Virus record (IMG/VR): IMGVR_UViG_3300025072_000003
Length of the DNA stretch: 64,000 nucleotides
Reading direction: 5' to 3' (one strand)
Origin: an uncultured virus (IMG/VR IMGVR_UViG_3300025072_000003)
Lineage: Duplodnaviria > Heunggongvirae > Uroviricota > Caudoviricetes
The stretch's first letter is position 1. Every line of letters starts with the position of its first letter. Of this stretch, positions 1 to 56,441 are shown one piece after another. Below the pieces are notes generated by a model. The model saw nothing but the letters and a program-made list of their open reading frames with translations. It did no database searches and had not been told where the DNA came from. The position numbers and the translations under genes are program-made.

Positions 1-88
1 ACTCCTACATAAGAATCCCCATTTTTGATGAAATTAAAGAGGACGTTCTTGCTTGAGGGCGTTTTAATTTTACTTTACAGGAAACAAT

Positions 89-499
89 ATGCGTAAGTTA
101 ACTTTTGAAGATGATACAACCATATGTGTAGCGGACTCATACGAATTTCATATTCCACGGTTTGGAACGAACATACCTGCAAGATCTGTTGTTCCTACTG
201 ATGTTGTTCTTGTTGAGGGGAAAAATGGAACTAGTAAGACTCCAAAGGAGGTTGTGAGGAACGATTCGACAGAACTTCCCTACAAAACCGCCGCACAAGC
301 GTTTACAGAAAAAGAAGTCGAGCCATGGAAGCCGCCTGGATGGAAGATGGGCGTGACTATGAAAGACGTTGACTTAACCGACGAAGAGATATTTGATCAA
401 TTCATTAGAATGATTGACCGAAATGTCGCTAAAGACGAGAATGCTGATGCATGTAGGGTAAAATCAGTAAATGAATGGCTTGAAAGGCACATGAAATGA
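89..499 (+). CDS. hypothetical protein
   Basis: AGGA RBS before ATG; stop overlaps the next start (ATGA). Confidence 0.75.
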   Translation: MRKLTFEDDTTICVADSYEFHIPRFGTNIPARSVVPTDVVLVEGKNGTSKTPKEVVRNDSTELPYKTAAQAFTEKEVEPWKPPGWKMGVTMKDVDLTDEEIFDQFIRMIDRNVAKDENADACRVKSVNEWLERHMK

Positions 500-1116
500 G
501 TGACACATATGATGAAAAGTATCTTGAGAACCTTCGCGTCTTTGGAGATGACCTCACAATCGAAGAATCGGATCAAGTTTACCGACTTGGTGGCGTTACT
601 CATCGCAATGTGAGGGCTATGCTGGAAACAGCCCGTAAGACGGCGATCACAGACGGTCGTTCCTCCAGCGAGTGTTTGAAACAATTGATTGACAATAGGC
701 AATTGATTGACCAAAATGTAAAGAAATACGATTACGACGAGGCACATGAAATGAATGGATACGATGAAGATGGAAACCTGATTAGGAAGTTGTATGGTGA
801 ATATGACGATTGTTATGGCGTTCCTCAAAAAGACAGTTCTGCCGATTTATGCAATGAAGCGGCTCTCAGAATAGAATATTTGGAGGCTTTGTTGCAAAAC
901 AAAGAAAATGAGATCGCTGGATTGCAACGTCGTCAAATGCATGCACCTGTAAGGCGCACCGTTAGTTCTGCTGGATCTGCCGACGATCAGATAAGAATTA
1001 ACTCCGAAGCAGAGTTATTTAAAGAACTCATGCTTCTAATTGACGCTAACGCTGTTTCTAGAATGATTACCAGAAAACAGGCGTTTAGTGAGTTTCTTGA
1101 AAGGCACATGAAATGA
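496..1116 (+). CDS. hypothetical protein
   Basis: 206 aa, translationally coupled on both sides; ends in LERHMK like the previous ORF. Confidence 0.8.
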   Translation: MSDTYDEKYLENLRVFGDDLTIEESDQVYRLGGVTHRNVRAMLETARKTAITDGRSSSECLKQLIDNRQLIDQNVKKYDYDEAHEMNGYDEDGNLIRKLYGEYDDCYGVPQKDSSADLCNEAALRIEYLEALLQNKENEIAGLQRRQMHAPVRRTVSSAGSADDQIRINSEAELFKELMLLIDANAVSRMITRKQAFSEFLERHMK

Positions 1117-1550
1117 GTTTTACTATAAAAAAGGTTACGCCAAAACAGATTTCTGGTCGTTCAATTGAGCTAGAAGCTTCTTTGGATGATGAGATAGTTA
1201 TTGCCGAAGTGGTGGTTGATGGTTTTCCCGAACCCAGCAAAGAACACATTGATGAAGCATTAGTTGATGCTCGTAAACATGCTGAAACTCACAACAATAT
1301 TCGAGATTGGGCTAAGCAATGTACTGTCAAAGAAGCAAATGATGCTGTTGCCAATCGCAATCGCAATCAGACTTCCAATGATAATTGGTGGGGATTTTGG
1401 GGCGATGGAGAAAATGAACAGCCTCAAACCCACAATCAGCATAGAAGTCATAATGAACCAATAACTGCGTTTGAGAAAGTTATGTTTTCAGTCTTGGGCG
1501 TTATGCTTTTTGCTTGGCTTATGTTCGTTTTGATGTTTGGGGGCGCTTAA
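1113..1550 (+). CDS. hypothetical protein with C-terminal TM helix
   Basis: Coupled start; hydrophobic C-terminus VMFSVLGVMLFAWLMFVLMF. Confidence 0.75.
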   Translation: MSFTIKKVTPKQISGRSIELEASLDDEIVIAEVVVDGFPEPSKEHIDEALVDARKHAETHNNIRDWAKQCTVKEANDAVANRNRNQTSNDNWWGFWGDGENEQPQTHNQHRSHNEPITAFEKVMFSVLGVMLFAWLMFVLMFGGA

Positions 1551-20803: not shown

Positions 20804-20966
20804 TTTAGTCCTCAGGTGGTTGGTGTTTCGTTCAATACGCTATTGACTGAGATTTAATTATCTGACAACAAAATTAAAAACTTTTGGGCAGGGACGGCAG
20901 GGTACAATTTACCCTGATAACTAAGAGCAATTAAATTAAAATTATAAATTTTAATTTAACGCCCAG

Positions 20967-21039
20967 TGACACGGACGGGAATCGAACCCGCGTAGGCGAG
21001 ATTGAAAGTCTCGCTGCAAAACCAGCATCGCACCGCGCC
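20967..21039 (-). tRNA. tRNA-Glu (TTC)
   Basis: Acceptor GGCGCGG/CCGTGTC; anticodon arm CGAGA-CTTTCAA-TCTCG; T arm GCGGG-TTCGATT-CCCGT; no encoded CCA. Confidence 0.85.
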
Positions 21040-21047
21040 CCTTTGTG

Positions 21048-21235
21048 TGGCTAGGTCAGGATGGAATCGAACCATCATTACGTCCAAATCGTTCAACGCT
21101 AGTTGCTCGCTGTCCCCAACTAAGGCTTACGCGCGATTGCCCCGCAACTAACTTGATGGTTTAGATCAGACCATCACAGATTGACTTGGTTAGCCAATAT
21201 CCACCGCAACCGTGCGAGTTGCAGCTTACTAACCC
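21048..21235 (-). ncRNA. ~188-nt tRNA-like structured RNA (acceptor stem and T arm around a multi-hairpin insert)
   Basis: 5' GGGTTAG pairs with 3' CTGACCT, followed by AGCCA; T arm GATGG-TTCGATT-CCATC; four internal stems. Confidence 0.6.
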
Positions 21236-21274
21236 TCATGTTTCGCTATTGACTGAGAATTAAACTTCTGACAA

Positions 21275-21661
21275 CTAACTTGCTAATTCTGCATTGGTTG
21301 TCAATTTTAGCTTCTCGATTGTATCTAAATCACTAGGCGTAAGGCTTAATAGCATTTCAGTCGCCTCTAGTCCATCCGTAATCATCTTATGCCGAATGTG
21401 TTTAGTCCAAGCGGCATTAAACTCATCTTCGGTTAGACGGGCATTATGAGCGTCGAATGTGCCACCATCAATCAGATTGAGGTGTCGCCCAGTTGACTGT
21501 CCCCAATCGTTGGTACGGACAAACAAGTCGCCTTTGACGCGAAATGCTACCACTACGGTACGCGAGTAATAAATTGCAACACCATCACAAATGATTTTAA
21601 TGGTATCGCCGTAGCTACTCTTACTCTCGCCGTAGCTTTCAATATCTGGTTTCATCCACAT
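21275..21661 (-). CDS. hypothetical phage protein (cassette)
   Basis: GGAGA RBS; TAG flush with element. Confidence 0.8.
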   Translation of the reverse strand: MWMKPDIESYGESKSSYGDTIKIICDGVAIYYSRTVVVAFRVKGDLFVRTNDWGQSTGRHLNLIDGGTFDAHNARLTEDEFNAAWTKHIRHKMITDGLEATEMLLSLTPSDLDTIEKLKLTTNAELAS

Positions 21662-39622: not shown

Positions 39623-40149
39623 GTTATTTCCTTTGTACTTTCTGATTGTATGTTGACTGAGAATGGATTATCTGACAATTATTATTCACATTTTGTCAGA
39701 GTGCGAGTTTTAAAAGTTTTCACCCACTCTGTTTTAAACCAGTTTAACCATGTGGGTTTCCACACTCCAATAAATGATTCTACAGCCAACACGTCACCAC
39801 AGTTAGGGCAATTAGCCTCATCAAGAGCAGAGTTGTAGTGCTTGCATTTATCGCAGCATAAAACAGTTTCAATTCTCAAAATCATTCCTCCTGGTCGTTT
39901 TAATTAGTGTGTCCCAAGTTAATTGCCTTACGTCCATGCCAATAGAGGTTAACGTATCTGGCACTTTCCCGCAGCATCGCGTAAGTTATGGTAGATTCCG
40001 CTTTTCATACACACCAAAAAAAAATTTAGCGACGTGCGACTTACCTCGACAGCCAAATCGTTCATATGATACGTTTAGCCTTTTGTCGATCCCATCTGTG
40101 CGGGAGTTCTTATGCTCTTTTCGCAACTGTCTTCCGCTAAATTAAAAGA

Positions 40150-40236
40150 CCCATTCCGAATTGGACTTGCACCAATATTTCTTGACCCAAGCCAAGTATC
40201 CTAATAGCTCATGGCGTTTAGATGAAGCGAAATAGG
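40150..40236 (-). ncRNA. degenerate tRNA-like element
   Basis: 9-bp closing stem CCTATTTCG/CGGAATGGG; T-arm-like ATTGG-TGCAAGT-CCAAT; anticodon-like arm CTTGG-CTTGGG-TCAAG (6-nt loop). Confidence 0.4.
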
Positions 40237-40289
40237 TTAATTCATTATGTTTGGCTATTGATCGAGAATTGATTATCTGACAACTATCT

Positions 40290-40553
40290 TCAAGCTATTA
40301 CTTCAAGTTCTTCTGCGATTGCAACCCAACGATTGTGATCTTCATTGAAATCTACATAAACTCTTTTTTCTAAAACTTTAACTACTTCCCCAACACAATC
40401 GTGTGTTATAGCCCCCCATCCAAACTCCGGTCTTACAACACTTTTCTTTACCCTAACAATACTTCCAACTACAACATCAATTGCAATCTCAACATCTGCG
40501 TAAGATTGCCATTCCAATAGACGTTCCATAGTTCTATCGCCAGTCATTGACAT
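40290..40553 (-). CDS. small protein with Mind bomb/HERC2/KEG-type SH3-like domain
   Basis: VGSIVRVKKSVVRPEFGWGAITHDCVGEV...VYVDF...W.....ELEV resembles the HERC2-like repeats of HERC2/KEG. Confidence 0.6.
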   Translation of the reverse strand: MSMTGDRTMERLLEWQSYADVEIAIDVVVGSIVRVKKSVVRPEFGWGAITHDCVGEVVKVLEKRVYVDFNEDHNRWVAIAEELEVIA

Positions 40554-45159: not shown

Positions 45160-45231
45160 AAATTAGAGGGGAAGCCCCTCAAGTTGTTATGTTTGTAGGT
45201 TGATTGAGAATTGATTATCTGACAAACAATC

Positions 45232-55628: not shown

Positions 55629-56441
55629 TCACAGTGTAGTCACAGTCATTGGAGTTTCGCCATCAAAAACAACCTCTACTCTGTTGACTACCTTGCCAAA
55701 TGGAGGCATTGCAATTTCTTTGAATTCAGTACGTTCAACAACAAGGTTAGGATTACGTCTTGCCTCATGCCTATCTGGAAGAGACTTTATCTCTGCTATG
55801 CTAAAGGGGCGTTTTAATTTTACCTTTTGAATAAACACGCCTCTCTTAAAGAAGTCTGGGTATTCATTCCAATTAATGCCTTTCTGGAACAGCATCTCCT
55901 GCTTATCAGACCCATTTTTGCCCATCAATTCCTTGTGTGAGTAAAAAGACTGTGATGCCATGCTAATGCTGTTCTTAGTGGCATCTTGCTCACGCCACAG
56001 TACAGCATTAGCTGCTTCCATTTTATTTGGAACAGTCCATGCTCGACAATCGAATACTGGGTCCAAATGTGCTTTCTCTGGGATTGCCTCTCTCAAGTGC
56101 TTGTTGAAGAACAAAGAGCATTTTGCTGCTAAAATGGAGCATATTTTAAAAATACGCCCATCAAAGTAGATTTGGCTCTTAATATTGTCAGAATACAGAA
56201 CCAAAGTAATCTCATCGCTCTGTGTGTACGCTATATGGGCGTTTGTCTCCCTCGCAAGGTACTTTGCGGTATTCGTCATCAATTCTGACAAGCGAACGTC
56301 ATATGGACGCTCTAGACCCCTTGTGAAGGTGCTAAAGTTCTTTCCATCCAAACGAACGACTAAAGGGAGAAGAGGCATTGCTACCACTTGCTCCCTTCCC
56401 TCAAGTTCCTTCATTCTGTTTCCGAATTCATCACCACTCAT
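55629..56441 (-). CDS. tRNA(His) guanylyltransferase Thg1-like protein
   Basis: VVRLDGKNFSTFT; YTQSDEITL; FDGRIFK; PVFDCR; WREQDATKNSI. Confidence 0.93.
   Translation of the reverse strand: MSGDEFGNRMKELEGREQVVAMPLLPLVVRLDGKNFSTFTRGLERPYDVRLSELMTNTAKYLARETNAHIAYTQSDEITLVLYSDNIKSQIYFDGRIFKICSILAAKCSLFFNKHLREAIPEKAHLDPVFDCRAWTVPNKMEAANAVLWREQDATKNSISMASQSFYSHKELMGKNGSDKQEMLFQKGINWNEYPDFFKRGVFIQKVKLKRPFSIAEIKSLPDRHEARRNPNLVVERTEFKEIAMPPFGKVVNRVEVVFDGETPMTVTTL

Follow-up and report, generated by a model that had tools for sequence, protein, structure and literature searches.

A candidate stable tRNA-like RNA without an anticodon arm beside a tRNA-Glu gene of a huge uncultured marine phage

What is encoded by a stretch of about 185 nucleotides (nt; 184-188 nt) that carries the two ends of a transfer RNA (tRNA), lacks D and anticodon arms and adjoins a tRNA-Glu gene on its 5' side? 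This question is raised by a locus on the minus strand, at positions 21235-21048, of a 64,000-nt DNA from an uncultured virus of the Caudoviricetes (IMG/VR record IMGVR_UViG_3300025072_000003). We refer to this whole stretch of DNA as the window; it is an early-gene block of an uncultured marine phage of ~500 kb and is packed with small genes. The tRNA-like stretch itself is called RNA1 here, and its bases are numbered from G1 at 21235. Our analysis suggests, by analogy and with about even confidence, that RNA1 is a non-decoding, tRNA-derived stable RNA, which would be matured by tRNA enzymes in a manner like that of species 1 RNA (rnaC) of phage T4.

Anatomy and placement of RNA1

RNA1 and the tRNA gene that follows it comprise the following parts, listed in the direction of transcription (bp, base pairs; MFE, minimum-free-energy structure).

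21229-21235, minus strand: 5' acceptor strand GGGUUAG (RNA 1-7), then U8 and A9; sequence reading
21203-21225, minus strand: hairpin 1 (RNA 11-33), GCUGCAAC(U)/(G)GUUGCGGU, 8-9 bp; mean pair probability 0.93
21186-21197, minus strand: UUGG-CUAA-CCAA hairpin (RNA 39-50); weak, pair probability 0.05
21154-21176, minus strand: hairpin 3 (RNA 60-82), UGAUGGU-CUGAUCUAA-ACCAUCA; pair probability 0.66
21098-21152, minus strand: branched domain (RNA 84-138) with closing stem GUUAGUUGC/GCAACUAGC (84-92/130-138); pair probability 0.93, in the MFE
21084-21095, minus strand: 12-mer UGAACGAUUUGG (RNA 141-152), with the look of a remnant of a D-stem 3' strand, junction and anticodon-stem 5' strand
21060-21076, minus strand: canonical T arm GAUGG-UUCGAUU-CCAUC (RNA 160-176); sequence reading, pair probability 0.29
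21048-21059, minus strand: 3' acceptor strand CUGACCU (RNA 177-183), unpaired A184, then GCCA; sequence reading
20966-21039, minus strand: tRNA-Glu(UUC), in the same orientation as RNA1; ARAGORN, Rfam tRNA 36.1 bits

The two ends of RNA1 rebuild the top half of a tRNA. GGGUUAG (21235-21229) pairs with CUGACCU (21059-21053) at 7 of 7 positions, including two G-U pairs (G1-U183 and U5-G179, equivalent to 1-72 and 5-68 of a tRNA), and the acceptor stem, U8 and canonical T arm of a tRNA are all present. No cloverleaf that includes a D arm and a 7-nt anticodon loop reaches the threshold of a tRNA model; the D and anticodon arms are absent and ~150 nt of hairpins stand in their place. A preliminary description of the locus, made from the letters alone, had proposed just such an RNA with an intact acceptor/T-arm top half and neither of the other two arms, and our analysis bears out this proposal, including the perfect T arm and the 7-bp end-to-end stem. 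Of the four internal hairpins it listed, three are present with good predicted stability and the fourth, UUGG/CCAA, exists but is weak. Its 8-nt gap to the neighbouring gene agrees with the ARAGORN coordinates, which place the start of tRNA-Glu 8 nt past the CCA-like end of RNA1 and 12 nt past A184.

The unconstrained ensemble of predicted folds favours the acceptor, hairpin 1 and the 84-138 domain (mean pair probabilities 0.66, 0.93 and 0.93), and enforcing both the acceptor and the T arm costs 0.5 kcal/mol over the MFE (-59.4 vs -59.9 kcal/mol). An alternative long-range helix, CCAAGUC (47-53) with GAUUUGG (146-152), has a pair probability of 0.005 and appears in the MFE of the interior. The T-stem word UGAUGGU recurs as the 5' strand of hairpin 3.

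The top half is not placed at random. The window contains three exact matches to the T-loop word GGTTCRANTCC, namely in its two real tRNAs and in RNA1. Full complements of CTGACCT are found at 18 of 63,994 minus-strand positions, corresponding to ~0.05 expected in the 170 nt upstream and ~0.003 in the few positions beside the putative transcription start, where one of them lies.

Known families, relatives and the T4 stable RNAs

RNA1 matches no known family. With default settings ARAGORN called only tRNA-Glu and tRNA-Arg in the window and nothing on RNA1, and Rfam 15 at gathering thresholds likewise returned these two tRNAs and left RNA1 unmatched. We also ran a sensitive Rfam scan (E<=10) over 451 nt around RNA1, in which the sole tRNA-clan match on RNA1 among those listed was a partial tRNA (16.6 bits, E 1.1, cut-off 29 bits) that spans 21052-21116 with GGGACAG as its 5' strand in place of GGGUUAG. 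Apart from it, the minus strand of RNA1 gave only a weak match to the long non-coding RNA Yar_2 (15.4 bits, E 0.7) among those listed. Models of transfer-messenger RNA (tmRNA), Y RNA and introns were absent from the matches listed for this region, YrlA (RF02553) gave no match in 20900-21350 at E<=10, and no Ro/TROVE domain was detected among the 128 window proteins scanned. The preliminary description is supported in that no known family is matched. The only match to the mascRNA model lies on tRNA-Glu (21.3 bits, cut-off 42.5) and not on RNA1.

Among known systems RNA1 is most like the small stable RNAs of T4, with which it shares a place in a tRNA transcription unit, a T arm, paired ends and the lack of an anticodon arm. 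Species 1 RNA (rnaC; 139 nt, NC_000866 70908-71046) and its neighbour species 2 RNA (rnaD) both lie directly after tRNA-Arg. Like RNA1, rnaC is encoded beside a tRNA inside the tRNA transcription unit; a canonical T arm (CCGGG-UUCGAAU-CCCGG) stands near its 3' end, the strand behind this arm pairs with the 5' end, and hairpins totalling ~100 nt occupy the place of the D and anticodon arms. rnaC too has no Rfam family, its best sub-threshold match on its own strand being tRNA-Sec at 17.5 bits. rnaC is processed by tRNA enzymes and carries ribothymidine (T) and pseudouridine, according to literature of the 1970s. As a kind, RNA1 can therefore not be called undescribed, a possibility raised in the preliminary description, since an RNA of this design was already known from T4. 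Passages in two papers state that the roles of rnaC and rnaD are unknown (PMC3014915; PMC9697503). The likeness is one of design: against a model of RNA1, rnaC scores 10.4 bits (E 0.11), which is within the range of ordinary T4 tRNAs (6.2-13 bits) and amounts to no specific similarity. Moreover, rnaC folds far better than its shuffles (z = -4.57), whereas RNA1 does not (z = -1.18); rnaC follows tRNA-Arg at its operon's 3' end, but RNA1 precedes tRNA-Glu at the 5' start; and the terminal stem of rnaC is interrupted, whereas that of RNA1 is a regular 7 bp.

Searches for relatives were made at the level of DNA, RNA, flanking proteins and promoters. Among 50,697 GenBank phage records, megablast with 20 kb of the window gave no match and blastn matched only tRNA-Glu; at E<=10 blastn gave short chance-level matches, and those among the matches listed that fall on annotated tRNA genes (Ser, Gln, Ile) all align to the T-arm region of RNA1. 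An exact 30-mer found no match in IMG/VR, and the three proteins flanking RNA1 have no relative there. The helicase of the window has relatives in a clade at 40-53% identity in metagenome assemblies only, while IMG/VR offers 25-31% only. Two promoter patterns of the window gave chance single matches in IMG/VR, except for three contigs of one metagenome, which share its promoter type and are probable sister contigs. A promoter pattern, which is not specific to the RNA, recovered short metagenome contigs that agree exactly with the window, all of them in parts away from RNA1, and it gave 67 single chance matches among GTDB genomes. Four huge phages, the three sister contigs and the window outside RNA1 yielded no match to a single-sequence covariance model of RNA1; with filters off the model retrieved ordinary tRNAs only, which score 6.2-23 bits through the acceptor, U8 and T arm.

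Promoter, a second unit and tRNA ancestry

The following features bear on how RNA1 would be transcribed and where it may have come from (ORF, open reading frame; aa, amino acids).

21237-21279, minus strand: promoter copy of RNA1, TTGTCAGA-N8-TCTCAGTCAATAGCG..., with the rare start-site variant AAACATGA; from the alignment of 69 copies
21275-21661: gene upstream of RNA1
26472, 29878, 36059 and ~49860, minus strand: apparently leaderless genes with ATG at promoter index 48/49 (158, 171, 98 and 33 aa, respectively)
40016-40248, minus strand: second unit (candidate RNA2), ~232 nt, ending in nine U; its promoter, with AAACATAA, is at 40296

Almost every small gene of the window is preceded by a ~40-nt promoter element, 69 copies of which, mostly on the minus strand, could be aligned between 7840 and 50544. 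On the coding strand the consensus reads TTGTCAGA-N8-TCTCAGTCAATAGCGTATTGTAAG; copies at ~7.8-32 kb have CAATAGCGTATTGTAAG and those at ~34-50 kb have CAACNTACAATCATAAC, which makes two sequence classes, and there is one copy every 230-750 nt. The element looks like one for a phage-specific RNA polymerase or sigma factor and not like a sigma-70 promoter. In 4 of the 69 copies an ATG at index 48/49 opens an ORF (158, 171, 98 and 33 aa), and at least the genes of 171 aa and 98 aa have no Shine-Dalgarno sequence. The mRNAs of these four genes are best read as leaderless, which would place transcription start at about index 48-49 and imply that the promoter is conserved through +1. The 158-aa gene (26472) may instead start at a second ATG, 15 nt downstream, which is preceded by GGAG. 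In the copy that serves RNA1, index 48-50 is ATG at 21239-21237 and G1 is index 52; we infer that the transcript starts at ~21239-21237, 2-4 nt before G1.

Three of the 69 promoters, those of RNA1, of tRNA-Arg and at 40296, are followed by no ORF of at least 30 aa within 160 nt, and the same three, and no others, have AAACAT at index 44-49 instead of the usual TATTGT. The variant at 40296 points to a further RNA gene, and the unit behind this promoter is, on present sequence data, a candidate for a new non-coding RNA. It contains no ORF of at least 30 aa, has no Rfam match better than E 0.5 and has no 3' T arm. Its predicted fold includes a 10-bp long-range helix, AAUUUAGCGG/UCGCUAAAUU, and a T-arm-like hairpin, AUUGG-UGCAAGU-CCAAU. 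The exact 12-mer UGAACGAUUUGG is common to RNA1 and the second unit (40064-40053), as are ATATTGG, CAAGTC and AGTTGCG in the same order, and the hairpin 1 loop word UCGCACG appears again in the 3' tail of the second unit. Gapped local alignment of the two gives a score of 52, which none of 300 shuffles attains (27 +/- 5) and which exceeds the best of 51 control segments (38), and the second unit ranks first of the 2,121 segments that do not overlap RNA1 (2,126 in total, both strands). RNA1 and the second unit are therefore likely to be paralogues. If so, the insert would have diverged to ~55-60% identity while the T arm and acceptor of RNA1 are perfect, which suggests selection on the top half. 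With tblastx neither RNA unit gave anything below E 0.19 against the window and the sister contigs. Nothing therefore hints at a decayed protein gene.

The 12-mer also offers a clue to ancestry. Searching IMG/VR for the 12-mer combined with a T loop gave five matches, four by chance and one in a genuine tRNA-Asn(GUU) of another locus (L177), in which GAAC is the 3' strand of the D stem, GA the junction and UUUGG the 5' strand of the anticodon stem. The second unit matches this tRNA-Asn over a 15-nt stretch that runs into the anticodon loop and covers its first four bases. Because the 12-mer corresponds to the D-stem/anticodon-stem junction of a genuine tRNA, RNA1 has the look of a tRNA whose D region took up ~130 nt and whose anticodon loop was removed. 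Its order would then be that of the 5' acceptor strand, U8 and A9, the ~130-nt insert, the D-stem 3' and anticodon-stem 5' strands, 7 nt, the T arm and the 3' acceptor strand; a tRNA has 16-17 nt where RNA1 has only the 7 between its anticodon-stem remnant and T stem. Having no anticodon, RNA1 cannot decode.

The phage itself invests in tRNA 5'-end chemistry, as seen from one gene among the 10 proteins that a Pfam scan of 128 window ORFs returned better than E 1e-4, a set that includes a UvrD-like helicase, a Thg1-like tRNA-His guanylyltransferase, a PcfJ-like protein, a family 25 glycosyltransferase, an HD domain and an HNH endonuclease.

55629-56441, minus strand: Thg1-like tRNA-His guanylyltransferase (Pfam PF04446, E 1e-29)

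The nearest relatives of the Thg1-like protein, at 58%, 51% and 47% identity, come from three uncultured huge phages of 485-635 kb, the one at 58% from the 635-kb phage. CheckV puts the completeness of the sister contigs at 7%, 14% and 12% for 35, 69 and 60 kb, which implies a genome near 500 kb. All 23 public sequencing runs listed as containing window sequence are marine metagenomes, and no RNA run is among them. Further RNA elements were noted in the window and on one sister contig. Past tRNA-Glu, at 20940-20965 on the minus strand, lies a perfect 13-bp inverted repeat of A and U only, UUAAAUUAAAAUU-UAU-AAUUUUAAUUUAA, with GGGCG before it; many gene boundaries carry related GGGGCGTTTTAATTT words (repeat families D12, D14 and D16). 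The ~31-nt leader of tRNA-Arg (45160-45190, minus strand) holds a tight hairpin, GAGGGGCUUCCCCUC. Locus L157, on IMG/VR sister contig G001, carries a tRNA array (1-1372, minus strand) of Leu-CAA, a 91-nt tRNA with the four-base anticodon call gaga, Ser-GGA, Leu-UAG, Phe-GAA and Leu-UAG, and a weak additional tRNA at 348-416 (25.9 bits). Within this array, 472-570 (minus strand) matches the Rfam bacterial small signal recognition particle (SRP) RNA at 40.0 bits, which equals the gathering score; the match partly overlaps the tRNA-Phe call and may be a phage-encoded 4.5S-like RNA or an artefact. The array also contains an orphan T arm at ~1075-1095 (minus strand) that no tool calls as a tRNA; as an analogue of RNA1 it is ambiguous, its best fold placing the T-stem strand in another helix, and we did not retain it.

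Origin and possible role of RNA1

How might RNA1 be made and what might it do? On the preferred reading, that of a stable RNA like rnaC, RNA1 and tRNA-Glu would be co-transcribed from the phage promoter of RNA1, the primary transcript would begin 2-4 nt before G1, and its first seven bases would pair with the seven that follow the T arm, rebuilding the acceptor/T-arm top half of a tRNA. Because RNase P, 3'-trimming enzymes and the CCA-adding enzyme would recognise this top half, the host tRNA machinery could cut RNA1 from tRNA-Glu and trim it to a stable species of ~184-188 nt; maturation by RNase P, which the preliminary description had also considered, is plausible. RNA1 would then act through its insert or by keeping acceptor-end binding proteins occupied, and a function as a decoy for acceptor-end factors is conceivable. 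A decoy for anticodon nucleases, one of the earlier suggestions, is unlikely because RNA1 has no anticodon loop to be recognised.

Several observations weigh against this reading. The folding energy of the whole RNA1 is not exceptional (26 of 200 shuffles are equally good), and that of the interior alone is even closer to its shuffles (z = -0.67). The encoded CCA is one base out of register (A-G-CCA), and it may be a coincidence, since tRNA-Glu and tRNA-Arg, both tRNAs of the window, encode none. Word repeats within RNA1 (UGAUGGU, GUUGCGG, GCAACU and UUAGUUG) allow many alternative pairings. No orthologue was found in the databases searched, hence there is no covariation, and in four runs the contigs agree exactly with the window across 21004-21269 and show no variants in RNA1. 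The rare promoter variant is no proof that RNA1 is a gene, because tRNA-Glu alone explains it. As for the paralogy with the second unit, the next-best window segments score 47 and 46 against 52, BLASTN recovers the 12-mer alone (E 0.006), the case appears to rest largely on this one word, and the predicted folds of the two units show no helix-for-helix match.

Some of these observations would be expected if RNA1 were a dead tRNA gene and merely a long 5' leader of tRNA-Glu that is lost during tRNA-Glu processing, an explanation that we consider possible but rather unlikely. In the first tRNA of the operon, ~130 nt would have entered the D region and the anticodon loop would have disappeared, leaving debris. 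The kept pieces do read as untouched tRNA parts split by two discrete lesions (GAACG-AUUUGG as in tRNA-Asn), the 7-nt spacer before the T stem and the insignificant folding energy fit such a history, and a start adjacent to the promoter is natural for the first tRNA of an operon. In addition, repeated promoters and duplicated cassettes would favour rearrangements, and UUAGUUG, a word at the upstream edge of the promoter, occurs twice inside RNA1. However, decay would have had to leave all 31 nt of the T arm and acceptor intact and make everything between them unrecognisable, and 190 nt of junk would be unusual in a window so tightly packed, in which the tRNA-Arg unit needs a leader of only ~31 nt. 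If the second unit is a paralogue, moreover, RNA1 would be old and yet undecayed in its top half. A different use of the same ends, which we judge improbable, would be as a processing or punctuation signal only, directing cuts by RNase P or RNase Z in the style of t-elements or mascRNA. Plant-mitochondrial t-elements and mascRNA are tRNA top halves without a decoding role, and a tRNA top half is the minimal substrate of tRNA-processing enzymes. Yet those elements are short and flank mRNAs or long RNAs, whereas RNA1 is 188 nt long, begins at the transcription start and is followed by a tRNA; lying 2-4 nt past the start, in a unit without an mRNA and before a tRNA-Glu with signals of its own, it has nothing to punctuate, and a minihelix of ~35 nt would be enough, which leaves the 150-nt insert unexplained.

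The ATG at 21239-21237 could also open a leaderless micro-ORF of 21 codons, ending at a TGA at RNA 60-62. The four promoters whose ATG at index 48/49 opens ORFs of 33, 98, 158 and 171 aa offer a precedent, and two of them share the start-site word CATGAG; but CATGAG also occurs inside the second unit, 36 nt past the start and followed by a 3-codon frame, and the frame in RNA1 is not only short but buried in the acceptor stem and hairpin 1, and it accounts for neither the T arm nor a further 120 nt, all of which makes a coding role quite improbable. We regard two further identities of RNA1, that of a reduced tmRNA and that of a genuine intron-bearing tRNA, as very unlikely. In tmRNA (RF00023 and its clan) a large insert likewise links the acceptor and T arm where an anticodon arm would stand, and the ends pair; passages of one report also describe tmRNAs in huge phages (PMC7162821). 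RNA1, however, has G3-C70 (G3-C181) and not the G3-U70 pair, an absence that the preliminary description had read correctly, is about half the usual length of a tmRNA, contains no credible tag frame and has no tmRNA model among its listed matches at E<=10. ARAGORN gave no tmRNA call with default or -ps settings, and the 'permuted tmRNA' that it called at -ps70 was rejected, its 29-aa tag running through the T arm. No SmpB was found among 16 + 112 window proteins, the 64-kb window and 164 kb of probable sister contigs being the part of the ~500-kb genome that was seen. Under relaxed settings ARAGORN parses RNA 82-184 as a tRNA-Ser(UGA) with a 26-nt intron; this parse carries no weight, because shuffling the upstream 152 nt, with the true T arm and 3' strand left in place, still gives a tRNA call in 84 of 400 controls at this setting, and the parse reaches -28.3 kcal/mol compared with -57 to -60 kcal/mol for the long-range models. 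The known bacterial tRNA introns are group I introns, and no group I model is among the Rfam matches listed for the RNA1 region. A more ambitious extension of the preferred reading, doubtful in our view, would unite RNA1 and the second unit in a family of regulatory RNAs that derive from tRNAs, are specific to the phage and have an 'RNA-gene' promoter variant of their own; RNA1 would be matured and CCA-tailed in the manner of a tRNA, possibly charged and active in trans during early infection. It could, for example, sponge host proteins or defence toxins that act on acceptor ends, or bind the C/A-rich leaders of phage early mRNAs through G-rich single strands.

What is new at this locus is the block of 69 promoter copies, the start position derived from leaderless genes, the AAACAT variant, the second unit and the match of the 12-mer to tRNA-Asn. 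Should RNA1 be a dead tRNA, it is an ordinary remnant. If it is instead a stable RNA like rnaC, it would illustrate how a decoding tRNA is converted by insertion into the D region and loss of the anticodon loop, and its clear transcription unit, intact top half and possible paralogue make it a concrete substrate for tests of function. Stable tRNA look-alikes without an anticodon have been known in phage tRNA operons since T4, without an assigned function. RNA1, as a second and unrelated example from a ~500-kb uncultured marine phage, suggests that this design is recurrent and not an oddity of T4.

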